Positions 50,650 to 64,000 of a stretch of DNA of 64,000 nt are shown one piece after another (position 1 is the first letter of the stretch; each line of letters starts with the position of its first letter). The position numbers were made by a program, and so were the translations under genes. The notes below the pieces were generated by a model. That model did not search any database, was not told the origin of the DNA, and saw nothing but the letters and a program-made list of their open reading frames with translations. This stretch comes from an uncultured virus (IMG/VR IMGVR_UViG_3300028886_001624) (Duplodnaviria; Heunggongvirae; Uroviricota; Caudoviricetes): positions 1 to 64,000 of IMG/VR virus record IMGVR_UViG_3300028886_001624; one strand, given 5' to 3'.

Positions 50650-51512
50650 TGAATTCGTATAAAGAACTTTTTGAAATACATGAATTTGACATCAAAAAAG
50701 AAGGGATTGGTGGCAGTTCCTTCTTTTTGCCCGGTGAACTCATAGAAGCCATTGATTTCACTTCTTTGGGTGTTGTGCGTGAATCATCATGCCTACCCAC
50801 TTATATTGAAGGTGAGAATTACGCCATTATGAATAAAGTTGGCGGTATTACCATCGAGAATAAGATATATAAGTTAATCAAGGTGGTGGATGAATTTAAC
50901 GGAAGCAAGATAGATTCACTTATTGTTAAGCAAATCTCCGGTCCGGTCAGTAAGATATATGCGCTGTCTCCACATGATTGTGAATGCCACAAGATACCAT
51001 TTCAAGAAGGGTTGCAATTGTTCCCTAAGGGGTTGCCTTGGTATAGGGTAAAGGAAAGGGTTAGGTTTAATCCATACGATATGTCAACCACACCTTTGAG
51101 TGACGTGGATAATACCATAAGACACATATTATTAAAACTGAACGGATTCGGGGACTATTATGACAATTACATTATAACCCCTAGCGGTAGACTATTGGAT
51201 GAGGAAGAATTCAAAAATACCCTAACGATTTATTCTAGGGACTCTCTACCATACGGCAATGGGTTTGTTTGGAAGGCAAACAAAAACTTTAACGCCTCCA
51301 TAGTCTACCCCAATACATTCTTGTTTAACCACGGTAACTTTATATCCTCAAACGGAGAGATATTTCTTAGGATTGACCTATTGGTCCGTGGACTTGATAA
51401 CACCACCATTGACGGATTCTTCGGTGTTGAACCGATATATCTGAAAAACATCAATCCTAGTAAGTTCTTCAAGATTGTGTGGGATGAAAGGAGTTCAAAG
51501 AAAATAAAATAA
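50649..51512 (+). CDS. Hypothetical protein
   Basis: ORF overlapping the TelA stop. Confidence 0.7.
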   Translation: MNSYKELFEIHEFDIKKEGIGGSSFFLPGELIEAIDFTSLGVVRESSCLPTYIEGENYAIMNKVGGITIENKIYKLIKVVDEFNGSKIDSLIVKQISGPVSKIYALSPHDCECHKIPFQEGLQLFPKGLPWYRVKERVRFNPYDMSTTPLSDVDNTIRHILLKLNGFGDYYDNYIITPSGRLLDEEEFKNTLTIYSRDSLPYGNGFVWKANKNFNASIVYPNTFLFNHGNFISSNGEIFLRIDLLVRGLDNTTIDGFFGVEPIYLKNINPSKFFKIVWDERSSKKIK

Positions 51513-51564
51513 GGTAACTATAAACAATTAGACCATACTAAATTTATTTAAAATAAAAAAAGAT

Positions 51565-51732
51565 ATGAAACTAAAAAGAAAAATTGAATTGCAGAAAAAA
51601 GCAAAAGAAATGGCAAATTATGCGGAAAAACACCCCAACGCATCCTTATTTAGTGGATTTATGCCATCAGAAGAATACGACTATTTAGTAAAATGCTTGG
51701 AAGAAATAGACAAACGTGCCAAGATTGCATAA
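51565..51732 (+). CDS. Small hypothetical protein (55 aa)
   Basis: MKLKRKIEL..RAKIA; not in ORF track. Confidence 0.5.
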   Translation: MKLKRKIELQKKAKEMANYAEKHPNASLFSGFMPSEEYDYLVKCLEEIDKRAKIA

Positions 51733-51768
51733 TTACTGAAAATTTTAAGAATTTAACATTAATAACGT

Positions 51769-51906
51769 ATGAAACATTTCATTTATTGGAACCAAACTGC
51801 TAAAAAAAGCAAAGAGGAGATTAAATCCATCATGGATAAACAAGCAAATGGTGAAGAATATAAGTACGCAATAGTCGACACTGACCGCATAACAATTCAG
51901 AATTAA
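51769..51906 (+). CDS. Small hypothetical protein (45 aa)
   Basis: MKHFIYW..TIQN; not in ORF track. Confidence 0.45.
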   Translation: MKHFIYWNQTAKKSKEEIKSIMDKQANGEEYKYAIVDTDRITIQN

Positions 51907-51913
51907 AATAATT

Positions 51914-52315
51914 ATGGATAAAGAAAAAAGATTTGTTGGTGATGTAGACAACATTGACGGAGTTAGGGTAGTTCAAGATTATGATGACATTTACCGTGCC
52001 ATGCAGAACGGTGAAACCGTGCTCCATTGGGAATACGGCAATTCCCTCGCACCGTTGATTAATAACGGCGAATTCTGCAAAATTAAACCTTGTGTTCCCG
52101 CAGAGGTAAAGAGAGGCGATGTTGTCTTTTGTGTCTTAGGCGGTCAATACCCGATGGTTCATCAAGTGACAGAAATATCAAATGCTAGTTACACCGGAGA
52201 ACTTTGGTTCAAGATTGGTGATACGCACGATACAACCTATGGTTGGACCAAGGAAGTATATGGAATTGCTGTCGGCACAAACATTTTTTATGAAGAGGTG
52301 AAAAAATGGATGTAA
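51914..52315 (+). CDS. S24/S26 peptidase-like protein
   Basis: GNSLAPLI..G, GDVVF, H..IGD pattern. Confidence 0.55.
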   Translation: MDKEKRFVGDVDNIDGVRVVQDYDDIYRAMQNGETVLHWEYGNSLAPLINNGEFCKIKPCVPAEVKRGDVVFCVLGGQYPMVHQVTEISNASYTGELWFKIGDTHDTTYGWTKEVYGIAVGTNIFYEEVKKWM

Positions 52316-52376
52316 AGACTTGTCATTTTCAAGATTTTTATATATCTTTGCACTGAAAAATTTGTTGCTCATTGTT

Positions 52377-52448
52377 TGGAATATAGTATAAGTGGTAATA
52401 CGTCAGATTTTGGTTCTGAAGTTACGAGTTCGAGTCTTGTTATTCCAA
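52377..52448 (+). tRNA. tRNA-Gln(TTG)
   Basis: Acceptor TGGAATA/TATTCCA, anticodon stem TCAGA/TCTGA, TTCGA loop. Confidence 0.9.
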
Positions 52449-52467
52449 CAAAAATATTAATGGACAT

Positions 52468-52860
52468 ATGGAAGATTTTAACCACAAGGAGATTCACTCT
52501 AAAAAATTCTATCAATCGATAACTGAAATTGTTTTCGAGGCAGTAAAAGAAGTGCCATTTGAAAAGGTGGCAACAAAAGGCTCAAAAGAGATTTGGAAAC
52601 TATTTTGGCTTTTTCCGATTACTTTGGAAACCCATAAGCAAGACGTTTATTCTATTAATGACAGTGATTATACGGAGAGCCAATTGAATAGCAGTCTCAC
52701 GTATTTCTTCTCAGAGGGAAAGATAATGAGGAGGGCGATTGTCAAAATATATTGCGGCTCGCAAAATACTACTTATAAATTCAAAACAAATCGAGAAGCA
52801 TTGGATTTTTTGGATAATGTTAAGAAGGCATGTAAAGAATGCGGAAACGAATTACTGTAG
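52468..52860 (+). CDS. Hypothetical protein
   Basis: ORF between tRNAs. Confidence 0.65.
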   Translation: MEDFNHKEIHSKKFYQSITEIVFEAVKEVPFEKVATKGSKEIWKLFWLFPITLETHKQDVYSINDSDYTESQLNSSLTYFFSEGKIMRRAIVKIYCGSQNTTYKFKTNREALDFLDNVKKACKECGNELL

Positions 52861-52863
52861 GAT

Positions 52864-52937
52864 GGTCCCATAACTCAATTGAATAGAGTAACTGACTTCT
52901 AATCAGTAAGTTGGGAGTTTGAATCTCCCTGGGACTA
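52864..52937 (+). tRNA. tRNA-Arg(TCT)
   Basis: Cloverleaf, ACTGA-CTTCTAA-TCAGT; atypical D loop (no GG) and T loop TTTGAAT. Confidence 0.8.
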
Positions 52938-53008
52938 CTTGGAAAAAAATGTACGATTTTTCGTACATTTTTTCTTTTTTACTGTATTTATTGTAAAAAA
53001 GAAAGAAA

Positions 53009-53602
53009 ATGCAGTGGAAAACACAGAAAGAAACGTTGGAACAACTGATAAATGTTGACCACATTTCCTATGAAGAAATTGGAAGGAGGTACGGCCTAAG
53101 CGGACAAGCGGTCAAGAAAGCGGCGCAAAGGTTAGGTATCACCCTCCCAAGAAGGAGAAGAATTAATCCGTCAGAACATTTCAACAAGGGAACCGCAGAA
53201 ACGGCTGTTTGTGAAAATTGTGGAACTGAGTTCACAAAGTATACCGGACACAATGGAAGATTCTGTTCACTTGATTGTTACAATGAGTTCAAGCACAAGG
53301 AGGCTTACAGAGATTTCTTGGAAAACAATGACAAATACTGTCGCGCAAACTACAGTCCAAGAACGTTTAAGAAAGAAATATCGAAGGAACAAGGCGATAT
53401 ATGTGCCATATGTGGGGGTGGACAAGAGCACAACGGAAAACCGTTGGTCTTTATTCTAGACCACATTGACGGCAACGCTGCAAATAATAAGAGGGAAAAT
53501 CTCAGATGCGTTTGTCCGAACTGTGACAGTCAGTTGCCGACATACAAATCAAAGAACAAGAACGGCGCAAGAAGTTACTATCGATATCACAAAGAAAAGT
53601 AA
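53009..53602 (+). CDS. HNH endonuclease
   Basis: CAICG..LDHIDG...NN...NLRCVCPNC; N-terminal HTH and zinc finger. Confidence 0.88.
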   Translation: MQWKTQKETLEQLINVDHISYEEIGRRYGLSGQAVKKAAQRLGITLPRRRRINPSEHFNKGTAETAVCENCGTEFTKYTGHNGRFCSLDCYNEFKHKEAYRDFLENNDKYCRANYSPRTFKKEISKEQGDICAICGGGQEHNGKPLVFILDHIDGNAANNKRENLRCVCPNCDSQLPTYKSKNKNGARSYYRYHKEK

Positions 53603-53640
53603 CTTTAAAAAAATAAAAAAAAAAATAAAGAAAAACGATT

Positions 53641-53790
53641 ATGGCTTGTGGATGTAAAAAGAAAGCAGAAAATGCAGCCAACACCAATGTTTCACAACAA
53701 GTAAAGATTACAAATGTAAATACAAATGCTTTGAGTGAAAGTGGAAGGACTAGAAGGGCTGAAAAAAGAATTATTCTAACCGAAGAATAA
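53641..53790 (+). CDS. Small MACGC protein (49 aa, not in ORF track)
   Basis: MACGCKK..LSESGRTRRAEKRIILTEE; followed by terminator hairpin. Confidence 0.75.
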   Translation: MACGCKKKAENAANTNVSQQVKITNVNTNALSESGRTRRAEKRIILTEE

Positions 53791-53901
53791 TGAACCAATT
53801 CCATCAATTCCTAAATTGATGGAATTTTTTGTTTGAAAAACATAATCATTGAACTATTTATGGTTAACAAATACTAACCTAAGATAAAAAAATATATTGA
53901 A

Positions 53902-55341
53902 ATGCCAACAATGAACTGTTGCTCAGAATTTCAGACCGAATGTCTCAAAGTTGTCACAATAGGCTACCTTAAGACATTTATAGGGAACAATATACAAGAT
54001 TCAAACGGTAATATCGTTACCATTTCACAATCTGATGATACGTATTGCCCTAGTTATACTGAATTGACGAACGGTAGCATCATACCTAGCCATGTACAAG
54101 GGAGTACACCCAATTCTGACGTAGACGGTGTAATCATATCTACGGCAACTACACCATACAGTGGGACGCAACTTGTGGACCAAAGAGACCTATCCATTAT
54201 ATGGACTAGGCATAATGGATTGAACATCAGTGCATCATCTACTGAAATAGGTGCTTGTGGCGGTACGTCACAATTGAGCGTTGCCAATACCTACATCAGA
54301 TATAAAAAATATATGAATGAGGCATGTGAGATTCCTTCCAACCCAAGTTCAAGCACGGTGAGCGACACTAGCACATCTGAGTTGACTTGGTACAAGGAAT
54401 TGGCTGATGCAACCATCAATACAACAACTTTGGTCTATTCTCTTCCGAAGAACGAGGATGAGACCACCCCAATCAGATATGACCACATATCTGCCCATAC
54501 CGTGTTTAGGACCGCCGTAAAGGGCAGCAATGTGATTACAATGACACAATCTGAAACCGGAGGCGACTACACCGAACATGATGCATATTACTACATAACT
54601 ACTGCCGCCACTGCGGAAGCAACGACCGACACAACGTTCGTTTCGTGCGGTGCAATAACATACGGTGCCAAGTTCACGCTCAACCAAGACAGATGGGAGA
54701 CACGACATTGGAAAGACTCTTGCGGTACTGAAGACCCGACAAGGACAAAGGACTTCAATGTTGGGCCTACTGCCTCAACCGTATATTCATCCGTCACTAG
54801 GAATTGGAGTGCAGTAGAATGTCCGGTAAGTTCAAGCGCAAACTCAGATACAATAGCGTTTACGTACACGGACCCGAAAACATCTGAGGTGTTCAACGGC
54901 TCGGTTAATTTCTCTAGGACGTGTACGCAGAGTTGCTGCTCTTCCTATGAATATAGGATAACTTCACCAACCCCAAGCGATGTTACGGGTATTGATAACT
55001 GCGGCGTTCAAGGAAACTTCATAGTAACAATGCAATATAAGTGCGCAGACGGTGGTATGCCAAGTGAATGGGAACCTTATACCGGATTTACCGTTACAAC
55101 TGCATTTGTGTCCGGCCAAGACTTCGTATCGTTTAATGAACTTGCCTATGATGCTGCCGCAAATTGTACAACTGACGCTAGAAGCGGCACTTATGCAATA
55201 AGGGTACAAGCGGGTAGTGCCGGTGACGTTATATTGGATACAACGTTTAACGTGGTATTCTCTCAAGATGCCGGTCGTTGTGCTGATTGCGGATGCGGCT
55301 GCGAATCATTGATATTCGATGAGCCGGTATTACAGCCCTAA
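53902..55341 (+). CDS. Cys/Thr-rich putative virion protein
   Basis: N-terminus paralogous to 28996 ORF (YCPSYTEL/YIPKYSEL, DVDGVII/DVNGFII). Confidence 0.6.
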   Translation: MPTMNCCSEFQTECLKVVTIGYLKTFIGNNIQDSNGNIVTISQSDDTYCPSYTELTNGSIIPSHVQGSTPNSDVDGVIISTATTPYSGTQLVDQRDLSIIWTRHNGLNISASSTEIGACGGTSQLSVANTYIRYKKYMNEACEIPSNPSSSTVSDTSTSELTWYKELADATINTTTLVYSLPKNEDETTPIRYDHISAHTVFRTAVKGSNVITMTQSETGGDYTEHDAYYYITTAATAEATTDTTFVSCGAITYGAKFTLNQDRWETRHWKDSCGTEDPTRTKDFNVGPTASTVYSSVTRNWSAVECPVSSSANSDTIAFTYTDPKTSEVFNGSVNFSRTCTQSCCSSYEYRITSPTPSDVTGIDNCGVQGNFIVTMQYKCADGGMPSEWEPYTGFTVTTAFVSGQDFVSFNELAYDAAANCTTDARSGTYAIRVQAGSAGDVILDTTFNVVFSQDAGRCADCGCGCESLIFDEPVLQP

Positions 55342-55372
55342 AATAAAATAAAAAAAAAAGAGAAAGTTATAT

Positions 55373-57883
55373 ATGACAAGTGTATTTTTCCCACCGGAAG
55401 GTGGAACAATAGTTCTTGGATACTCGATAGAACCTTGTGAAGGAGAAAAAAACGTAACATTCCAAAAGAGTGACGATGATTGGTTTTCAATCACCGTCGC
55501 ACCGACTAGTTTAACACTGACGGCAACTGCCGGTTCTTCAAGAGAGGGGTATGTTACACCCCTTTTTAACGGGAATGCTTGCAGCAACATCATTGTGAGC
55601 CAAGGTTCTTGTGACTGTAGCAGTTTCATTGTCAGCGGGGTCAGCACCATAGCGTTCAACTATATAATACCCGCTTCCGGTTCACCGGTCGGTACGGTCA
55701 TGGGTACATACACCCTTGAGGGGTGCAGTGACAGTGAGATAAGGTTTGACAGTGACTTGGGGCTTGTCGCTGAGAACGGTGAAATCAAACTTACGAGAGC
55801 CATTGCCGAATCGCAAGAATCAGCGTTCACGGAATATGACGTAGACATATATTACGGCCAAAGCAACGAGAAATGTTACAGTGACACCATCTTCCAAGAA
55901 GGTACGCTTGTAAAGTGTGACTGTAGCGGTGTTGAGTATTTCGTAGAATCATTCAAGAAATCATATCCGCTGAGTGGTACGAGTGAATATGTCATGATTG
56001 CTAGCGGAAGCACGCATAACTGCGGTGTATTGTCAGCCATAACTAGTTCTGAGATTTTCGAAGACGAGAATATTGATTGTAGATACAGCCAAGATAATAC
56101 GAAATTTGAGTTTTGGGGAAAACTGTTACCCACAACCGCAAACCGTTCCGGCGGTCTCCGATTATATTACTTGGACAATGAGGGGGTGGAACAAGAGTGT
56201 GACAAGTCACTTATCGTAACACAAACTAGAACTTATTGTAACTGTGATAACCAAACGTCTTGGATAACGTTCGAAGAAGGATTCTCAGATGACGGTTGGG
56301 TTGATGATAACCACATTGTATTTTTCAACAGTTATCAAGATTATTTGGACGGCGCACAAGCCATTGGAAATAGGTTGGAGGGAAGCATACAAGATATTAT
56401 AAACCATGAATATTTTATATTAAATCAGTTAGAATATAATTGGATGACTCCAATCAATATACTGAAACCTAGCAATAATACCTCAACTTGCCGCGTGATA
56501 TGGCCTTCAAGCAGTGACGTGGATTGGATTTATCCGGCTTGCGACAATAATCACACATGGACTGACTGCGGATTCTATTGGAAACCAAATGAAACGAACG
56601 AACCACGAATTGCCCACATTACATTTGACCTTTATATTGATTTTGATTCCACAAGCAGTATTTCATTTGAGACATCAACTGAAGATGAAGATGAGTACAG
56701 AATCATATCCTATGACATCAGAGGTTGTTCAAAATGTGAGAAGCAGTTCAAATTTACCGTGTTACAACTTCCTAAATATGCACCACTGACTTGTTATACC
56801 AACCATAAACTAGATTCTTGTGTATCACTTGTCTCGTTAAACGATTATGTATTGCAAAAATATTATTATGGGTGGTATGATACATACTTTGTACCGGCAA
56901 ACCCGGCTCAACAATTTAGACAAGCAATTGACAAAGACACCATCGCAAATGAGGCGGTAATATCTGCCGATACTAGCAGTGCCGATTGGGTATATATATG
57001 TGAATATAACTATGATAAGTATCTCTGCATTGATGACAATAATTCTTCCTCTGACCGTTCTGCAACCGTGACACTTCAAGTCCAAACAGAAAGCGGTGAT
57101 GTCTGTTGTGATAAAGTATATGAATTTAAGCAACATCCGTTAATAACTGACTGTGCTTCGTTCAAGGAATCGTTTGGATATTATCTGTATTGTCAAGCCA
57201 TAGATGACCACGGAGAATATGTCAGATATATTTCAGCCGACGGAGACACAACCTTAAATATGTATTTCTTCGGAGATTCTAGGGGTTGGAAAATGAGTGC
57301 CGTAACTTGTGATGCTAGCGGTGTTGATACACCCTCAAATATTGTCAACAGAATAGAATACTATGTTCCGTCTGAAACGAAATATCTTGGTGGATATAGA
57401 ATGGACATTATTTATAATGACAATATATATTCAGACAGAAGGACTCAGTATCTTAAATTCTTCTACGTTGACGATAATGGGAACCAAGTCGGAGGAAGCG
57501 ACTGTTTTACCATCTTGAAGACCATCCAATACGAACCCCAGACACCTACTTGTTATTGTCAGAGAATGGAGTTCAACCAAGCGGAAATCCAAACATCATA
57601 TCCTTCTAACTATGGTGAGATATTTATCGGAACGGCCACGGTCAGCCAAGGTGCACCATATTGTAACAGCGTCAGTGCCTCAACCACACACTCTGACCTA
57701 TTGTCTTGCAGAGTAGTCGAGACGGTCACGCACACAACATATGAGGTATATGCAACCATTGGAAGGAACACTAGTTCCACGACACAGACAGTTACCGTGG
57801 ACATTAACTTGATAACTAGCGAGCCTAGGACATGTGACCAATACTATAGGTATGTAAGTTTCAACGTACTACCGGAAACATAG
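55373..57883 (+). CDS. Large Cys-rich protein with BACON/Ig-like modules; putative adhesin or virion protein
   Basis: Repeated DW..N...R.A.(I/V)T..Q patterns. Confidence 0.55.
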   Translation: MTSVFFPPEGGTIVLGYSIEPCEGEKNVTFQKSDDDWFSITVAPTSLTLTATAGSSREGYVTPLFNGNACSNIIVSQGSCDCSSFIVSGVSTIAFNYIIPASGSPVGTVMGTYTLEGCSDSEIRFDSDLGLVAENGEIKLTRAIAESQESAFTEYDVDIYYGQSNEKCYSDTIFQEGTLVKCDCSGVEYFVESFKKSYPLSGTSEYVMIASGSTHNCGVLSAITSSEIFEDENIDCRYSQDNTKFEFWGKLLPTTANRSGGLRLYYLDNEGVEQECDKSLIVTQTRTYCNCDNQTSWITFEEGFSDDGWVDDNHIVFFNSYQDYLDGAQAIGNRLEGSIQDIINHEYFILNQLEYNWMTPINILKPSNNTSTCRVIWPSSSDVDWIYPACDNNHTWTDCGFYWKPNETNEPRIAHITFDLYIDFDSTSSISFETSTEDEDEYRIISYDIRGCSKCEKQFKFTVLQLPKYAPLTCYTNHKLDSCVSLVSLNDYVLQKYYYGWYDTYFVPANPAQQFRQAIDKDTIANEAVISADTSSADWVYICEYNYDKYLCIDDNNSSSDRSATVTLQVQTESGDVCCDKVYEFKQHPLITDCASFKESFGYYLYCQAIDDHGEYVRYISADGDTTLNMYFFGDSRGWKMSAVTCDASGVDTPSNIVNRIEYYVPSETKYLGGYRMDIIYNDNIYSDRRTQYLKFFYVDDNGNQVGGSDCFTILKTIQYEPQTPTCYCQRMEFNQAEIQTSYPSNYGEIFIGTATVSQGAPYCNSVSASTTHSDLLSCRVVETVTHTTYEVYATIGRNTSSTTQTVTVDINLITSEPRTCDQYYRYVSFNVLPET

Positions 57884-58021
57884 TCTGTTCATTTTTGTTT
57901 TTTTTTTTACCAACTTTGCCGAATGCGTTTTTCCATTCGGCAAAATTTTTTATTGTTAATATGCATTTTTTTCCATGAAAATTTGTTATTTCAAAAAACT
58001 TTTTATATCTTTGCAAAAAAT

Positions 58022-58094
58022 CGCGGGATGGTAGGAGTGGTTTCCTCGGTGGTCTCATAAGCCACAGACGTTGGTTCGAACCCAACTCCCGCAA
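58022..58094 (+). tRNA. tRNA-Met(CAT), initiator-like
   Basis: CGCGGGA/TCCCGCA with C1:A72 mismatch; CTCATAA loop. Confidence 0.85.
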
Positions 58095-58102
58095 CAAAGG
58101 TT

Positions 58103-58229
58103 CACCACTTAGCGCAGATGGTAGAGCAACGTAATGAATGTTTTCAATGGATAACTGAAGGAAACTCACAGCAATTTAAAAAGTTGATTAGTAATCCGTA
58201 GGTCATAAGTTCGAGTCTTATAGTGGTGA
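58103..58229 (+). tRNA. tRNA-like gene (AGT anticodon, Thr) with 54-nt insertion in the anticodon stem
   Basis: Perfect acceptor and T stems; removing 58132-58185 gives ACGGA-TTAGTAA-TCCGT. Confidence 0.7.
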
Positions 58230-58263
58230 ACCTATTTTAATTTAATAAAAAGTTAACATTACG

Positions 58264-58617
58264 ATGGAAAAATATATTTTAAAGGTAACTATTTCATACA
58301 ACGAGAAGCCGGAAAACGACAAAAAAGAGCACGAAAGGGTGAATACCTTAACGCACTCAATTTGTGAGACATCGATAGATGATGCAATCAATGAAGCCAA
58401 TCATTTAATTGGTGAGTTGGAAGAGAAATTCGGCTTCAACTTTCCAAAGAGGTTTGAGGTGTCAAGCATGAAAAAGGGATATGAAACCATTTGTTCATAT
58501 GTAGATTATGTCATAGTTGGTGTAAGTTTAACTACTTTATATTTCTCTGACATTAATGCTGCACTTGAACACGCATTCAAATCTCAGAAAGAATATGAGG
58601 AATGGGAGAAAAATTAG
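58264..58617 (+). CDS. Hypothetical protein
   Basis: ORF in tRNA region. Confidence 0.6.
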   Translation: MEKYILKVTISYNEKPENDKKEHERVNTLTHSICETSIDDAINEANHLIGELEEKFGFNFPKRFEVSSMKKGYETICSYVDYVIVGVSLTTLYFSDINAALEHAFKSQKEYEEWEKN

Positions 58618-58648
58618 ATAATTATATACAATTAAACCCCAAAAAAAT

Positions 58649-58987
58649 ATGAGTTTAAGAAATAAAGAATCATTAGAGAAATACTTTGCAGAAAGTAGGG
58701 AAAGGATGGCTAAAAGAAAAATTAAAAAAGCCGAACATAGGAAGAATTCTAATAAACAACAAAAAAAAATGATTGAAACTGAAAAAAGAAAAGAAAAAAT
58801 GTGGACGAAATCTTTCTTAAATGCCATAAAAGATGATTCTGAATGGTATGAGCATTGGAATTCTATGGATATTTCTATACATTCAGTTGAAATCATTAGC
58901 ATATTAAGCAACAAAAAAACGTTAAATGATAACGAAAAAAGCGTGCTTGATTTTGCCTTTGAATTGGCTTATCCAAATGGTTTATAG
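58649..58987 (+). CDS. Hypothetical basic protein
   Basis: ORF in tRNA region. Confidence 0.55.
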   Translation: MSLRNKESLEKYFAESRERMAKRKIKKAEHRKNSNKQQKKMIETEKRKEKMWTKSFLNAIKDDSEWYEHWNSMDISIHSVEIISILSNKKTLNDNEKSVLDFAFELAYPNGL

Positions 58988-59054
58988 GACCAAATAATAT
59001 ATAATCACCAAAAATTAAACAATAATATAGCAGTTGACATAAAAATAAAATAGT

Positions 59055-59417
59055 ATGAATATAAGTGAATCATATAAGAAACTATCAGAATATTCTGATT
59101 TAGTAGAAACCATAACAAGTGGTAATACTAGTCGTATAGTATGTTTAAGAGGTATTAATGGAGTACAAACAGAAGAAATCACGTTTCACCCAAATGGAAA
59201 ATGTGGCTCTATAGAATTAAATGATGAGGAAATGTTTGGAATTCGCTGCAATCATTTAATGTGGGCAGAAGGATTCGTTGAAGGCACGGAATCATTTATG
59301 CAAGGAATAAAGGGAAACGAGGCTATATTGATTTATGGAAACCATAAAGGCAGTCTTGAAGTTGAATTGTTAACTTGTTCTGATAAAGAAGATACAAGGT
59401 CATATGTTACACCATAA
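59055..59417 (+). CDS. Hypothetical protein
   Basis: ORF in tRNA region. Confidence 0.6.
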   Translation: MNISESYKKLSEYSDLVETITSGNTSRIVCLRGINGVQTEEITFHPNGKCGSIELNDEEMFGIRCNHLMWAEGFVEGTESFMQGIKGNEAILIYGNHKGSLEVELLTCSDKEDTRSYVTP

Positions 59418-59454
59418 TGTGCCATCTTCTATATCATTACCAAAAATTAACATT

Positions 59455-59524
59455 GCAGCCTTAGTGTAACGGTGGCACGGGACGCTTCCAGCGTTCAAGA
59501 GTGGTTCGACTCCATGGGCTTGCT
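59455..59524 (+). tRNA. tRNA-Gly(TCC), imperfect acceptor/T stems (possibly degenerate)
   Basis: GGACG-CTTCCAG-CGTTC anticodon arm; GGTTCGACTCC. Confidence 0.7.
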
Positions 59525-59548
59525 CATATATGGTCTTTTCATACTTAC

Positions 59549-59613
59549 GAGGAAACTAACAGCAATTCAATTTTTTTGTTTCTCATAGGCTTTACACGAT
59601 TAAATGTTTCCTC
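59549..59613 (+). ncRNA. ACAGCAA-motif hairpin RNA candidate
   Basis: GAGGAAAC/GTTTCCTC terminal stem then TAACAGCAATT; motif shared with the tRNA insertion at 58160. Confidence 0.55.
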
Positions 59614-59636
59614 TAAAAAAAAAATTAAAGAAAAAA

Positions 59637-59930
59637 ATGAAGAAAGATGTTGATTTACCAAGGTACTCCTTGTTTTTCATTAAGGAAATACAAGAAAGTA
59701 TAAATGAATACAACATAGTCAATGAGGGTGACTCAATCTCTATTGAGATATGTACCCAATCACACCCGTATTCCTATGATGGACTCAAGACCGTTGTATC
59801 CACTTTCATTAGAAAGGGGTATAAAACTAGATTGCCGGATTTTAAAATGGTAAAGGACGGTGATGAAAAGAACTATGTTTATTCATGGAACCTTGCTAAA
59901 GCAGAACCCGGAGACGATTTACCTTTTTAA
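59637..59930 (+). CDS. Hypothetical protein with SSB-like C-terminal tail
   Basis: Ends GDDLPF. Confidence 0.65.
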   Translation: MKKDVDLPRYSLFFIKEIQESINEYNIVNEGDSISIEICTQSHPYSYDGLKTVVSTFIRKGYKTRLPDFKMVKDGDEKNYVYSWNLAKAEPGDDLPF

Positions 59931-59962
59931 CTAAATTTTACATATAAAATAAATTTTAAAAA

Positions 59963-60982
59963 ATGAAAAAGTTAATTTTGTTTTTGGCACTTATCTGTGC
60001 CACAGTTTCGATGAGGGCACAGATTGCCACTCAGAACAGTAATGCCTTGGATAATATCGGTGTAGGTGTTACGGTTGGTGCAACGGCACCGTTGGATTTC
60101 AATGACGTTCTGCCATTAAACACAAACTTCGGTCTTAAACTGACAAAGGACATCAGTCCCAAGTTCGGCTTGCAGTTGGAAGCGTTAGGATTTTTGAACG
60201 ACAATCACTTCAGCAATGTCAAGACCGCAATCAAGGCTACGAATGTAGGACTTAATGGTGTGACAAACCTATCTAACTTATTTGGTGGGTACAAGGGAAC
60301 ACCTAGATTATTTGAAGTTGGCCTAGTTGGTGGCCTCGGATGGTTACACACTTGGAATTCCGCCAATAATTTCCTTTCTGCAAAAACCGGCCTCGACCTT
60401 TCATTTAACATGGGCAAGAAGAAGGCACACAGTTTGGTCTTAACACCGGCAGTATATTGGAATCTGAACAAGTTTAATAAAATCCAATTCAACAAGAATG
60501 GTTCACAGTTGGCCCTTAACGTAACTTATGTATATCACTTCAAGACTAGCAACGGCACACACCATTTTAAGACATATGATATTGGTGCGATGAACGATGA
60601 AATCAATTATCTGAAGGGTCGCTTGGATGAATGTGAGAAGCAGAGTCCAAAGATTATCCAAAAGATTGTTGAACGCCAAGTTGAAAAGAAGGTTTCACAG
60701 CCAACACCAATGCAATGGTTAGTACAGTTTGCAAAAGGCAATGCGGACCTCAGCATCAAGGGCATGGAAACTCTGAACACCATCAAGGAAGGCACTGTTG
60801 TTGAAATTGTCGGTATGGCTTCTCCGGAAGGTTCACATGACTTCAATATGACATTGTCTAACAGACGCGCAAAGGTTGTGGCTGATTATCTTGAGACACG
60901 CGGCGTCAAGGTGAAGTCTTGTCGTGGAATCGACACGTCCAAGGATACGAACAGACTTGCAATTGTCACGATTGCAGAGTGA
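59963..60982 (+). CDS. OmpA-family outer membrane protein
   Basis: Signal peptide, beta-barrel, then G.ASPEG...N..LS..RA..V..YL peptidoglycan-binding motif. Confidence 0.85.
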   Translation: MKKLILFLALICATVSMRAQIATQNSNALDNIGVGVTVGATAPLDFNDVLPLNTNFGLKLTKDISPKFGLQLEALGFLNDNHFSNVKTAIKATNVGLNGVTNLSNLFGGYKGTPRLFEVGLVGGLGWLHTWNSANNFLSAKTGLDLSFNMGKKKAHSLVLTPAVYWNLNKFNKIQFNKNGSQLALNVTYVYHFKTSNGTHHFKTYDIGAMNDEINYLKGRLDECEKQSPKIIQKIVERQVEKKVSQPTPMQWLVQFAKGNADLSIKGMETLNTIKEGTVVEIVGMASPEGSHDFNMTLSNRRAKVVADYLETRGVKVKSCRGIDTSKDTNRLAIVTIAE

Positions 60983-61212
60983 GATATTAACAACTCAAAT
61001 ACAGAAGAGGAGGGGGATAATATCTAAAAAAAAATCCAATTTAACCGATAGTGTTTTTCAACGTCCATATGTCTACATTCTCCTTTAATTTGGTTGAATT
61101 GGTGGTTACTGCGACAAGTAAACAGTTCACGACGGATACCAATCTAGGCAAAACAGAGCCAATAAGTCCGTCACTTTTTACCTAACAGATAGAAAAAAAA
61201 AAATAATTCATT

Positions 61213-61431
61213 ATGGAAAAATGCATGCGGTGTGAGCACGACTTGATATTGACATCTAATTTTATGCTAAGTGAGGTTAGCGGGGTGGATTTGGATGAAG
61301 ATGATGATGCAATAGTGACATATGCAGAGTGTCCATATTGCGGTGCCAAATATGAATTGACCGATACTCCGGAATCAGAGAAGAAAAATTACCCCTATTG
61401 GAATGGAAACCATTCCATAGTTTACGAATAA
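61213..61431 (+). CDS. Small zinc-ribbon protein
   Basis: CMRC..CPYCG. Confidence 0.65.
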   Translation: MEKCMRCEHDLILTSNFMLSEVSGVDLDEDDDAIVTYAECPYCGAKYELTDTPESEKKNYPYWNGNHSIVYE

Positions 61432-61432
61432 A

Positions 61433-61982
61433 ACATAAGATGGACTCGTAACTCAGTTACAGTGAGGTTTAATCTCCACCAACTAAAGTTGAAATTTAGT
61501 AAATCAGCGGCATAAGTTCTTAATTGAATTGCGCAGGAGAGAATGGAGGTTTACTATCTTGCAAGAATTTCAATATGGTACTGATACAGTGAGGTTTAAT
61601 CTCCACCAACTAATGCACACATAAAAACCTCCGAGGGCGAAGATTAATTCTTCGATGGGCATACTGGATTGACAGTTGAAAGACCTTGTAGTGGCAAACA
61701 CGTGATTGAGGTCAGTGTGATACGTAAAGCAACGTGATGGAGACTGTGAAAGAGAAAAGCAGTGAGAATCTGCACTTTAGTAGAATCCTTAAGTGGATTG
61801 AAGGAGTTAATTGCTCTAAGACAGATGTAGGAGGTTTTACATTAGTTTAGTGCTGCTAGACCACAACAAACAAACAATCGCTGAAGGTAACATAGTGACT
61901 ATCGTAGTTACAAGGCAAATCTTGTAAGTCAAAAGCCTAAGCCTTCTTAGGGATGGACATAAAATGGACTCGTAACTCAGTT
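61433..61982 (+). ncRNA. ORF-less structured element flanked by a 26-bp duplication of a tRNA 5' end
   Basis: Direct repeats 61433-61458/61957-61982 and 61458-61486/61585-61613; multiple long stems. Confidence 0.6.
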
Positions 61983-62039
61983 GGTTAGAGTAGCAGACTC
62001 ATAATCTGAAGGTCGTAGGTTCAATTCCTACCGGGTCCA
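61966..62039 (+). tRNA. tRNA-CAT (Ile2 or elongator Met)
   Basis: GGACTCG/CGGGTCC acceptor; CAGA-CTCATAA-TCTG; GGTTCAATTCC. Confidence 0.9.
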
Positions 62040-62098
62040 CAATTTTTTCTTTTTTTTTTTTCTTGTTATATATATTTATAAAGAAAAAAGTGATTATT

Positions 62099-62440
62099 AT
62101 GACAGAAAAAAGAATTAAAGAAATAATAAGGGAATGTATAAACGAAATTACAGACAACGCGAATGACGATAGAATTAAATTTAACCCTAATCAATTTAGT
62201 AGTCTTACACAACGAATAAAAGAATTATACCCTAACGGTACTGGGGGGTTTCATCCCTACAAACCGGAAGAAAGGATAAGGAACTTTGAAGGATTATTTA
62301 AGGCTGATAATCCGGATTATAGAAATTTTAAGAAATGGAGGGAAAGGAAAATAAACGTGGAGCATTGGGATTCAATAAACGCAAATTGGGAGAATTACTG
62401 GAAAGAACTAGAACAACAAAAAACTTATAAAAAAATATAA
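62099..62440 (+). CDS. Hypothetical protein
   Basis: After TATTTATA motif; leader-like IKEIIRECINE. Confidence 0.6.
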   Translation: MTEKRIKEIIRECINEITDNANDDRIKFNPNQFSSLTQRIKELYPNGTGGFHPYKPEERIRNFEGLFKADNPDYRNFKKWRERKINVEHWDSINANWENYWKELEQQKTYKKI

Positions 62441-62512
62441 AGAAAAAGATACTTTTTGAAAAGTATGTTATATTTATATTAAAAAAATCAGAAATTTTAT
62501 TTGAAACATATT

Positions 62513-62608
62513 ATGGATAAAAAGTATATCACGACATCATTTTTCACATCGGTAGCCGCAAATAACTTTTGTGGTTGTTGTTGCGTGTCCGTTTCTTTAA
62601 AGGTTTGA
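62513..62608 (+). CDS. Putative leader peptide (31 aa, Cys/Phe-rich)
   Basis: MDKKYITTSFFTSVAANNFCGCCCVSVSLKV followed by terminator. Confidence 0.45.
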   Translation: MDKKYITTSFFTSVAANNFCGCCCVSVSLKV

Positions 62609-62663
62609 GACAGTCGTGAGAATACATAAATATCTATAGGCACTTACTTCAATATATATTCCC

Positions 62664-62709
62664 AAAAAGGCTGTTGAAAACTGTAAAATGTATTCAGCAG
62701 TCTTTTTTT
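62664..62709 (+). terminator. Intrinsic terminator hairpin
   Basis: AAAAAGGCTGTTGAA / TTCAGCAGTCTTTTT plus T run. Confidence 0.7.
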
Positions 62710-62765
62710 ATGGAAATAATTTTGAAAATTGAAAATTTTTATATATTTTTGCATTGAAAAAAATT

Positions 62766-62837
62766 GGTCCCTTTGCTGAGTGGTTTAGGCGGCGGTCTGC
62801 AAAACCGTATACATTGGTTCGATTCCAATAGGGGCCT
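62766..62837 (+). tRNA. tRNA-Cys(GCA)
   Basis: GGTCCCT/AGGGGCC, U73, GCGGT-CTGCAAA-ACCGT. Confidence 0.92.
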
Positions 62838-62842
62838 CAATT

Positions 62843-62915
62843 GGAATCTTAGCATAGAAGGTTCATGCGTGAGACTGAAAATCTTGAGAACGTAGTTCGA
62901 TTCCACGAGATTCCA
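62843..62915 (+). tRNA. tRNA-Phe(GAA)
   Basis: GGAATCT/AGATTCC; TGAGA-CTGAAAA-TCTTG. Confidence 0.88.
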
Positions 62916-63126
62916 CAAACATTTTTTTCCAAGGTAATAACAATGTTTTTAACAAAACAAGCAACTCTGTGCGTAACTACCGATAAGAGCGGTGACCTTG
63001 GAAAAATTTTGGCTCGATAGTTTAAGGGTATATAACTGTTAACACATATTCTAATAAAATCTAATAAAAATATTATTGATTTTATGACAAAAATCGTTAT
63101 TTTTTAAATGTTAATGATATTTATAT

Positions 63127-63348
63127 ATGAATAGCAAAATAAATAATACGAAAAAATCATTACAGAATATGCAGTTAAAAGTTGTTGAGGTCACAAAGAC
63201 AAACTATACTCTTGAGAATGGCGATGTATATGAACATACATTCGATATTGATGAGGACATTACAGTAGATGAATTTCAGAAACTACTTGATAATGCGAAG
63301 AACACAATCATCGAAACACTAAATAAGATTGAAAAAGATGAGATATAA
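63127..63348 (+). CDS. Hypothetical protein
   Basis: ORF coupled to the HTH gene. Confidence 0.6.
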   Translation: MNSKINNTKKSLQNMQLKVVEVTKTNYTLENGDVYEHTFDIDEDITVDEFQKLLDNAKNTIIETLNKIEKDEI

Positions 63349-63665
63349 TGGGCAAGTTACTAAAGATAGAAGAAGCGGCCCAATATCTCAATGTGTCACA
63401 AGATTGTCTTCGCAAATGGGATAGGGCAAATAAACTCAAACCACTTAAAACCGTTGGTGGGCATAGACGTTACAGCACAGATGTTCTTGACGAATTATTA
63501 GGAAAGAAAAATATTGTGAATTATGGAAATCTGTATGAACATCTTTGTTCCGCTAGTTACATTTCACAAATGATTGGTGACGATAATGCAGAAGAAATTG
63601 AAAAGATAAGAGTTGATGTGGGTGATAAACTACTTAAACTACACGAAAAAGAAATAGAATGTTAA
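63348..63665 (+). CDS. MerR/excisionase-type HTH protein (IS607 TnpA N-domain-like, no serine recombinase domain)
   Basis: EAAQYLNVSQDCLRKWD..KTVGGHRRY. Confidence 0.75.
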   Translation: MGKLLKIEEAAQYLNVSQDCLRKWDRANKLKPLKTVGGHRRYSTDVLDELLGKKNIVNYGNLYEHLCSASYISQMIGDDNAEEIEKIRVDVGDKLLKLHEKEIEC

Positions 63666-64000
63666 GGGCAATTAAGATAAGGTTATATCCAAATAAGGAA
63701 CAAGAACTGAAACTAAACAAGGTTTTGGGCTGCTACCGATTTGTCTATAACCAAATGCTTGCTCTCAAACAACAAGAATACAACGAGAATAAGAAATCAT
63801 TAGGGCTTACAGACCTTTCAAAATACTTTCACGGAACATTGCTGAAAGACGAACAATATGAATGGTTGAAGGAACAGAACACAAAGGTGATGAAGCAGTC
63901 AATAAGGCAGATGCTTTCAGCCTATGACAAGTTCTTCAAACAACATAACGGATTTCCAAAGTTCAAGTCAAAGAAGGACAAACAATCAGCATTGTTCCCA
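63659..64000 (+). CDS. tnpB: TnpB RNA-guided nuclease family protein (partial)
   Basis: MLRAIKIRLYPNKEQ..GCYRFVYN..WLKE..GFPKFKSKK. Confidence 0.9.
   Translation, partial: MLRAIKIRLYPNKEQELKLNKVLGCYRFVYNQMLALKQQEYNENKKSLGLTDLSKYFHGTLLKDEQYEWLKEQNTKVMKQSIRQMLSAYDKFFKQHNGFPKFKSKKDKQSALFP

Follow-up and report, generated by a model that had tools for sequence, protein, structure and literature searches.

To our knowledge, the permuted tRNA genes and tRNA genes interrupted within a stem described so far belong to archaea, to certain algae and to a single algal virus, in which the bulge-helix-bulge (BHB) endonuclease accounts for them; bacteria and their phages are, as far as we know, not known to have this machinery. 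The BHB motif marks the exon boundaries with a pair of 3-nt bulges separated by 4 bp. Archaeal non-canonical tRNA introns and split tRNAs (Thermoproteales, Nanoarchaeum) include short inserts at unusual positions, among them the anticodon stem, and the archaeal intron-bearing, split and permuted forms are interchangeable in evolution and BHB-dependent. We know of no conserved primary-sequence core in archaeal tRNA introns that resembles the heptamer ACAGCAA described below. Permuted tRNA genes are recorded from Cyanidioschyzon merolae, the Mamiellophyceae and Thermofilum pendens (Soma 2007, Maruyama 2010 and Chan 2011, as cited in bioRxiv 10.1101/312249), and one prasinovirus, BpV1, also has a permuted tRNA according to PMC3673656. 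The subject of this report is a hairpin at positions 59549-59613 of a 64,000-nucleotide stretch of viral DNA (the window), together with the RNA element, here called the ACAGCAA handle, to which it belongs.

The window covers the initial 64 kb of an IMG/VR virus record 135.8 kb long (IMGVR_UViG_3300028886_001624; CheckV completeness 45%, GC 38%). The hairpin is a member of a previously undescribed phage RNA family. In this family the handle connects both ends of a cargo of tRNA origin, be it a permuted tRNA, a whole tRNA-like gene, a bare anticodon stem-loop or almost nothing. In a second form a loop caps the handle stem, and the handle interrupts the anticodon stem of a tRNA in its 5' strand; the tRNA-Thr(AGU) gene of the window is an example. 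No account of permuted tRNA genes or of an ACAGCAA handle in bacteriophages was found in the literature (subscription journals being only partly covered) or in Rfam 15.

Like the algal and archaeal permuted tRNA genes, the phage units have the 3' half upstream of the 5' half, a short linker that closes the acceptor stem, and pairing between leader and trailer; in both, ordinary tRNA genes can carry the boundary element as an intron, and the junction positions vary. As in BHB-dependent systems, the halves join to a canonical tRNA (15 of 43 cases in the relatives, and the tRNA-Thr of the window without its insert). Unlike those systems, which combine a bulge-helix-bulge with an archaeal or eukaryal splicing endonuclease, the phage host is bacterial by gene content, no homologue of the endonuclease was found in five related records, and the signal is a sequence-conserved handle (stem plus ACAGCAA). 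Archaeal tRNA introns are matched in the short inserts at unusual positions such as the anticodon stem; the handle differs from them in its conserved ACAGCAA core and in not being archaeal.

The ACAGCAA handle in the window genome and in other phages

The handle is defined by a closing stem (P1) of 7-8 bp that nearly always ends in C-G, followed by 2 nt, the unpaired heptamer ACAGCAA and then U-rich sequence, always on the tRNA-sense strand. The hairpin at 59549-59613, on the plus strand, agrees with this definition in stem, 2-nt spacer, core and strand (8 bp, TA). The 5' strand of P1, GAGGAAAC (59549-59556), aligns to paired positions of the covariance model R1 described below. Directly 3' of it, beyond the spacer TA (59557-59558), stands the unpaired core ACAGCAA (59559-59565), which is the same in the tRNA-Thr insert. 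A 40-nt cargo (59566-59605), apparently the remnant of a tRNA-like gene, leads to the 3' strand of P1, GTTTCCTC (59606-59613), after which an A-rich tract precedes an ATG at 59637. GAGGAAAC and GTTTCCTC form a perfect inverted repeat of 8 bp.

The earlier note on this DNA had described a hairpin made of the two motif halves of a tRNA insertion in reverse order. The 8-bp repeat and positions 58140-58174 of the insert bear this out: the halves of 59549-59613 recur in the opposite order within the tRNA-Thr(AGU) gene. That gene (58103-58229, plus strand; 58102-58232 in ARAGORN with introns allowed) was also parsed by hand; ARAGORN gives a 54-nt insert, which the hand parse puts at 58132-58185 (plus strand), between tRNA positions 29 and 30. 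The insert consists of a flank x (58132-58139), GTTTTC (58140-58145), a 14-nt loop, GGAAAC (58160-58165), TC, ACAGCAA (58168-58174) and a flank y (58175-58185), and its stem GUUUUC/GGAAAC includes G-U pairs. The tRNA itself has the acceptor stem CACCACT/AGTGGTG, an anticodon stem read as ACG+GA / TC+CGT and the loop TTAGTAA; taking out 58132-58185 leaves a canonical tRNA with the anticodon arm ACGGA-TTAGTAA-TCCGT. The same insert layout is seen in tRNA genes of relatives.

Model R1 was seeded with alignment A2, which holds 22 units of other phages and no window sequence. In the 142.8 kb searched, R1 matched 59550-59612 with 36.6 bits (E=3.1e-5) and, outside the window at 68945-69005, the third unit of this genome with 34 bits (E=1.1e-4); the next match had E=0.72, all of these E-values being rough after a short calibration. 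The motif is present three times in the genome, always on the plus strand. By itself the bare motif GGAAACTNACAGCAA is not significant, since it gave 2 matches with at most 2 mismatches and 12 of 100 shuffles reach 2. The third unit is closed again by GGTTTCCT and encloses a small hairpin. It follows a coding stretch and immediately precedes a strong terminator hairpin, with an IS1595-type transposase gene some 250 nt away.

A scan of IMG/VR with a 15-base motif returned 95 loci, many of them chance matches in coding DNA; about two dozen are situated among tRNA genes and are closed by GTTTCC or continue into a tRNA 3' half. With an exact-stem pattern, 52 loci were found for cargos of 15-45 nt (1 for the reversed control) and 48 for cargos of 88-118 nt; contigs of at least 100 kb hold 25 of the 52 short-cargo loci. 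The unit lists come from scripts that require pairing, and near-duplicate contigs inflate the raw locus counts; distinct counts are used where stated. The register of stem and core was counted in the tRNA regions of the related genomes G001-G005 and of the window genome (255.5 kb in total). Here ACAGCAA occurs 54 times on the tRNA strand, 32 times with a downstream closing stem of at least 7 bp in the 2-nt register and 6 times with an upstream hairpin. A stem or hairpin therefore accompanies 38 of 54 occurrences on the tRNA strand, against 2 of 16 on the opposite strand; the corresponding figures for four scrambled heptamers were 3/19, 1/21, 6/46 and 5/29.

Core positions A10-A16 are invariant across the 22 units of alignment A2, and the conserved 5' strand reads (A)GGAAAC-NN-ACAGCAA. 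P1 is 95.2% paired in 36 distinct R1 matches. Compensatory change was seen in three of the six P1 pairs (24 cells), a result that 0 of 500 shuffles equalled and that drops when the partner strand is slid; the alignment was fitted to the model and its seeds were picked for pairing. RNAalifold, applied to a MAFFT alignment, predicted P1 and no other helix. Stems of divergent sequence still pair, as in AGGGAGC/GCTCCCT, AGGAGTC/GACTCCT and AAAAGCC/GGCTTTT, and likewise in AAAAGCCTT/AAGGCTTTT, GGAAGCGT/ACGCTTCC and TATGAAGCA/TGCTTCATG. MAFFT misplaces the 3' strands of the divergent-stem units, and those rows were excluded from the model seed. Stem covariation and further copies in this and related genomes had both been proposed as checks in the earlier note; both were found, the copies at 68945-69005 and at the IMG/VR loci. 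Strand bias, G-U pairs and covariation show that P1 is a stem at the RNA level.

The same data bear on an explanation at the DNA level, according to which the stem halves are terminal inverted repeats of a mobile element like a miniature inverted-repeat transposable element (MITE), carrying tRNA fragments, with ACAGCAA as a transposase-binding site. Variable cargo between inverted repeats, the co-change of both ends across sub-families, the transposases nearby (TnpB at 63659-64858; IS1595 beside the third unit) and the multi-copy HNH endonuclease genes in tRNA regions would all suit such an element. It is nevertheless very improbable, given the strict strand bias (54 against 16 occurrences, 38 against 2 with stems), the G-U (T-G) pairs in the stems, and cargos that are exact complementary tRNA halves rebuilding a canonical tRNA. 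No target-site duplications were present in the flanks inspected, which were not searched systematically.

In 185,579 prokaryote genomes a 21-base pattern had 10 matches. On inspection two, perhaps three, of these are among tRNAs (L146, L147 and maybe L149), and they are probably phage contigs in metagenome-assembled genomes; the handle family is therefore not regarded as a feature of host chromosomes. Rfam, searched at E<=1 over window positions 51000-64000, returned tRNAs and sub-threshold noise and no intron or Y-RNA-type family, and at gathering score it returned tRNA and tmRNA only in 139 kb of related tRNA regions with more than 30 units. Readings of the core as an Hfq (ARN)n site, a CsrA site, an extracytoplasmic function (ECF) sigma factor -35 box, or part of a hammerhead or hairpin ribozyme were weighed and set aside for motif misfit or because a spacer base is variable.

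Cargo of the handles in relatives and in the window

The permuted unit L027 (= L222) runs in the order handle, 13 nt, positions 30-76 of tRNA-Thr(UGU), a 7-nt linker, positions 1-29, 11 nt and GTTTCC. Cargos of tRNA size were tested across their joined ends with strict criteria (5-bp anticodon stem, at least 6/7 acceptor pairs, U33, R37, a TTCRA T-loop, at most 78 nt) and with controls; this replaced an earlier ARAGORN pass over joined ends that lacked the strict filters and was too permissive. A canonical tRNA was obtained from 15 of 43 distinct cargos, compared with 0/43 reversed and 0/43 shuffled ones. Twelve of the fifteen are Thr(UGU) with the junction at 29/30, and these have 7/7 acceptor pairs in six stem sequences; their linkers measure 5-7 nt, and CCA is not encoded. 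The remaining 28 cargos fail the strict test, some being in other arrangements and some unparsed. Hand parses gave further junctions at 26/27 (Tyr, Cys), 31/32 (Gly) and 65/66, the last with an encoded CCA; across the junctions at 26/27 to 31/32 and 65/66 no tRNA nucleotide is lost or duplicated. Beside the junction the end of y pairs with the start of x in weak AU helices (duplex folding), over 8-9 bp in nine of the twelve permuted Thr units and 5 bp in three. Constrained folds of eight junctions contained a second helix in one case only.

Inserts in ordinary tRNA genes were found in Thr(AGU) of the window, in Lys(UUU) twice, in Ile(GAU) and in others, at 28/29 or 29/30. With the exact stem this form is rare: the scan for it gave 31 loci, 19 of them distinct, of which three are within tRNAs. 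A second class of tRNA insert is present in the relatives, about 70-105 nt long, located in the anticodon loop, starting with ATACRG and lacking ACAGCAA (L135 7700-7874; L137 15020-15195, 15305-15482 and 7666-7816); it matched no Rfam family at gathering score.

Short cargos are often bare anticodon stem-loops. With a stem of at least 4 bp and a 7-nt Y-U-NNN-R loop as the criterion, 17 of 44 distinct short cargos qualified, against 1.4 +/- 1.2 (maximum 6) in 200 shuffles, so that a suggested check for enrichment of such loops came out positive. UUU is the anticodon in eight of the 17, GUC in two, and seven others occur once each. The look-alike units L016 and L083 differ by a compensatory inner-stem pair and by their anticodon. 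A same-strand tRNA begins 5-19 nt downstream of 20 of the 44 short cargos, and several short-cargo units are located directly behind a promoter-like box. Phages are known to answer anticodon nucleases by repair of tRNA-Lys (T4 Pnk/Rnl1) and by spare tRNAs (T5-like phages). The handle units share with these answers a focus on the tRNA-Lys(UUU)-type loop, which is the commonest bare hairpin (8/17), and are unlike the repair enzymes and replacement tRNAs in being free anticodon hairpins in a conserved scaffold.

Other cargos are whole tRNA-like genes in normal order or hairpins with GGG loops, and near-empty units have 18-19 nt of cargo (L079, L134). Handles also surround non-decoding tRNA mimics. 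One of these, at L134 3696-3807 (minus strand), has the 6-nt loop ATTTTA. Another, at about 13801-13935 of L135 (plus strand) with a counterpart in L137, has a 5-nt loop, a weak T stem, a break at 65/66 and an encoded CCA; the acceptor stems of this pair show compensatory changes between the two phages.

The cargo of the window hairpin contains CTCATAG (59582-59588) and TTTACAC (59591-59597). The earlier note had listed both heptamers, correctly, and had taken them for anticodon-like loops. Neither is a hairpin loop in 59549-59613: their flanking bases are unpaired on direct reading, and the minimum free energy fold contains the closing stem and weak AU pairs, with no stable inner hairpin. This fold is unexceptional (z = -1.27, equalled by 23 of 200 shuffles).

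The syntenic unit in G001 is followed by a homologue (tblastn) of the open reading frame (ORF) at 59637-59930, the same ORF that follows the window hairpin. It reads AGGAGTC-TA-ACAGCAC ... GACTCCT, and within it lies a tRNA-like gene of 71 nt whose loop has 6 nt (ATTTTA) and for which ARAGORN returns '???(tt)'. In the alignment of the two units (A4), on which the assignment of the window cargo to a tRNA-like gene rests, both flanks are kept and two deletions of 10 and 32 columns fall in the window cargo; the window sequence GGCTTTAC is aligned to GGATTTTAC of G001, with TTTAC opposite the G001 loop ATTTTAC. Between the two units P1 differs at two positions per strand with pairing kept (two compensatory pairs). 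The window copy is thus best read as a decayed, cargo-depleted handle, and TTTACAC, by its place in A4, as the leftover of an anticodon-type loop and not a cassette. An exchangeable anticodon cassette for the split tRNA had been suggested; the handle adjoins the anticodon arm on one side only and a second joining site is lacking, which speaks against any such exchange. The companion suggestion, that the halves act as boundary signals, holds at the level of the family, in which they bracket permuted tRNAs and form tRNA inserts; in the hairpin at 59549-59613 the cargo is a remnant. Just upstream, G001 has a permuted tRNA-Gly(UCC) (hand parse) where the window has an ordinary gene, which implies that the layouts replace each other over short evolutionary distances.

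This decay could mean that the window copy is simply a relic, in which handle and stem have outlasted a deleted cargo and which would serve at most as a generic stable hairpin for processing or stability between tRNA-Gly and the downstream mRNA. The two deletions take out the tRNA body, the inner anticodon hairpin is absent, the fold is as ordinary as stated above, and the element is located in a mixed tRNA/ORF transcription unit directly before an A-rich leader. Against this, P1 (8/8 bp), spacer and core are intact, and the compensatory substitutions in P1 since the split from G001 argue for continued selection on the stem. Near-empty units moreover recur in other phages, as in L079 and L134, so that cargo-poor handles may be a functional class. 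A relic of this kind is considered improbable. The window copy would form a stable hairpin between tRNA-Gly and the next ORF and may have no further activity today.

Possible processing of the handle units

The handle could be a signal for RNA excision and end-joining, a reading that is preferred here and put forward tentatively. A structure-specific endonuclease would cleave the base of the AU-rich helix between handle and cargo, and the freed cargo ends would be sealed by RtcB of the host or by a ligase of the phage. This would splice the insert-bearing tRNAs. Permuted precursors would yield circles, to be opened at the acceptor stem by RNase P and 3' processing, and the short units would yield small circular anticodon hairpins. 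The AU-rich flanks vary in length (y 10-19 nt, x 8-15 nt) and the cargo ends abut exactly; because the distance from core to junction varies, a protein that reads structure is more in keeping with the data than a small self-cleaving ribozyme.

Known group I introns in anticodon loops of bacterial and phage tRNAs are about 200 nt or longer and have a conserved catalytic core of P3-P8. A tRNA-splicing intron of this kind circularises its exon if the intron halves are permuted around it, as in engineered permuted intron-exon (PIE) constructs, and the same logic from permutation to circularisation may apply to the handle units. A group I intron was rejected as an identity for the insert, which is just 54 nt long, lies in a stem and not in a loop, and had no Rfam intron match at E<=1.

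Several observations weigh against excision and joining. The tRNA splicing endonuclease family (tRNA_int_endo, PF01974) matched in none of the five related records, the control matching only in four archaea. No enzyme is consistently present, RtcB being found in one of the five records and RNA_ligase (Rnl2-type) in two, and neither these nor the endonuclease are among the 164 Pfam-scanned ORFs of the window genome, which is a 45% fragment. The search for RNA_lig_T4_1 was uninformative, as its control was silent. Host enzymes are possible agents, because RtcB and TROVE both match in the control genome of Bacteroides thetaiotaomicron. At the 16 junctions inspected no canonical BHB could be drawn (by inspection, no dedicated BHB search tool being used); the 3' boundary directly adjoins the anticodon hairpin, and the flanks pair in a single AU helix whose length varies, which leaves the cut sites at no fixed distance from the conserved core. 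Terminal-stem forms far outnumber inserts (3/19 insert-pattern matches in tRNAs), which is the reverse of systems in which permuted genes have arisen from intron-bearing ones. Ordinary Thr(tgt), Gly(tcc) and Lys(ttt) genes are also present in G001 (ARAGORN), so its handle-bearing copies would be dispensable for decoding. Finally, units that enclose a tRNA in normal order would need no end-joining.

The units could instead be modular small RNAs similar to bacterial Y RNAs, with the handle retained as a site bound by a protein of host or phage and the cargo, either a tRNA body closed at its acceptor stem or a bare anticodon hairpin, serving as bait or mimic; this reading is on balance doubtful. 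Anticodon nucleases or tRNA-modifying enzymes would be drawn to the bait, which might act as a decoy for them or as a substrate that is kept together and can be repaired; the anticodon-nuclease decoy had been suggested in the earlier note and may apply to relatives with intact anticodon hairpins. The bait of the window copy would have decayed. The architecture parallels that of Y RNAs as set out in bioRxiv 10.1101/312249: a long terminal stem, a conserved 5' strand and a permuted-tRNA-like module. The handle units share with YrlA and other bacterial Y RNAs that both RNA ends pair into a terminal stem whose 5' strand alone is conserved, that a tRNA-like module has the topology of a permuted tRNA closed at its acceptor stem (in the relatives; it is deleted in the window copy), and that they occur in phages. 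The prevalence of terminal-stem forms (52 + 48 loci, compared with three tRNA inserts of 19 distinct) and the ordinary tRNA genes of G001 point the same way. So do the enriched bare anticodon hairpins (17/44, UUU in eight), which are unable to decode, the non-decoding mimics with 5- or 6-nt loops, the acceptor-closing linkers of just 5-7 nt, and the match of the TROVE/Ro60 family in the Bacteroides thetaiotaomicron control.

Other features set the handles apart from Y RNAs. According to PMC4201824 and bioRxiv 10.1101/312249, YrlA lacks an anticodon loop, has the motif GNCGAAN0-1G (PMC4201824) in the 5' strand of its terminal stem, which differs from the ACAGCAA core, and adjoins a Ro60 (TROVE) gene. 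The handles have complete anticodon arms, TROVE was found neither in the five related phage records nor among the ORFs of the window genome, and the Rfam searches described above gave no Y-RNA match. The insert-bearing tRNAs, with free acceptor ends and canonical anticodon loops, resemble decoding tRNAs, and, in view of the contacts that the ribosome makes with the anticodon stem, a 50-nt arm at this place should not fit the ribosome. An encoded CCA in two independent units permuted at 65/66 (hand parse) points to a 3' end that is used.

Carried to its full extent, the cut-and-join reading would give large phages of bacteria a protein-dependent, non-BHB pathway of their own, addressed by the ACAGCAA handle. 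Such a pathway would splice tRNAs, mature permuted tRNAs via circles and turn out large numbers of very small circular anticodon stem-loops, chiefly Lys-UUU, as a counter to the anticodon nucleases of the host; the hairpin of the window would then be a used-up cassette. In all its parts together this picture is rather unlikely.

Genomic setting and significance

The hairpin is situated 23 nt 3' of an ordinary tRNA-Gly(UCC) gene (59455-59525, plus strand; ARAGORN) and 24 nt 5' of the ATG at 59637, in the 5' leader of the downstream ORF (59637-59930, plus strand, 97 aa). It is on the same strand as the seven tRNAs called by ARAGORN, within a run of tRNAs and small ORFs that begins after a terminator at 57915-57944, and this mixed tRNA/ORF transcription unit holds it directly ahead of the A-rich leader. 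A TAnnTTTG box, which we take to be of the Bacteroidetes promoter type, precedes tRNA-Met. An intrinsic terminator was considered for the hairpin and rejected: the stem is followed by an A run, with no T run on the plus strand, and it is not listed in a terminator scan of 57800-60100. The ORF at 59637-59930 and the neighbouring small ORFs matched no Pfam or PHROG family.

The Pfam scan of the 164 ORFs identified three sigma-70-type factors, DnaK/DnaJ, IF3, ClpP, TelA and SSB, and in addition BspA-type leucine-rich repeat (LRR) proteins, a CCA-adding-type nucleotidyltransferase, TnpB and an IS1595 transposase. These genes point to a large phage of a bacterium as the probable source; the host was assigned from gene content (sigma-70, IF3, DnaK/DnaJ and ClpP, with tmRNA in the relatives) and from promoter boxes. 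G001 is syntenic with the window genome over IF3, a sigma factor, SSB, TelA and the ORFs after the hairpin (tblastn). Window positions 57800-61000 have no close relative among deposited phages, and for L135 3000-9000 only tRNA and HNH pieces matched there; a cultured model is therefore not at hand. A look-up of sequencing runs listed 24; the two with the highest share of the sequence may be the source sample and are labelled bovine gut, and one RNA run shares 0.34 of the sequence words, figures on which no statement about habitat or expression is based.

A tRNA gene of the window is split by about 1.9 kb (63011-63045, resuming at about 64940-64984 beyond the window). It has the acceptor stem GGCTCGA/TCGAGCC, with the D arm in the 5' part and the T arm in the 3' part, and ARAGORN -i reads it as tRNA-Val(aac) with an intron of 1882 nt. 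The DNA between the parts holds an HTH/MerR-like ORF (63348-63665) and TnpB (63659-64858), which consists of OrfB_IS605 and a Cas12f-like TNB. An HNH endonuclease gene (53009-53602; PHROG HNH families) recurs in multiple copies in tRNA regions of G001, G002 and G004. The tRNA regions of G001-G004 also share a conserved 133-aa protein (51914-52315 in the window) that has a GNSLAP motif; it is S24/LexA-like by eye and was dropped as a candidate. Genes for tmRNA were found inside tRNA clusters at L135 9028-9435 and L139 12425-12750 (Rfam RF00023, 100 and 69 bits). In G001 about 300 nt between two tRNA-Glu genes (L134 5300-5600, minus strand) are free of genes and had no Rfam match at gathering score. 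An 84-aa ORF at 10515-10769 matches the Acb2/Tad1 hairpin domain below threshold (25.7 bits for a cut-off of 27, E=1.3e-5) and is possibly an anti-CBASS/Thoeris sponge.

The sequence comparisons suggest that bacteriophages possess a route of their own by which tRNA-like RNAs are cut and rejoined, or else tethered. The handle recurs at about a hundred IMG/VR loci, and it brackets exact tRNA halves, which implies either an as yet undescribed route of RNA excision and ligation in phage-infected bacteria or a new class of tRNA-mimicking small RNA. Through its enrichment in bare anticodon hairpins of the Lys type, the family is linked to the arms race over tRNAs in which phages and the defence nucleases of their hosts are engaged. 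Either reading, if true, would provide a compact natural scaffold for making circular or tethered RNAs.

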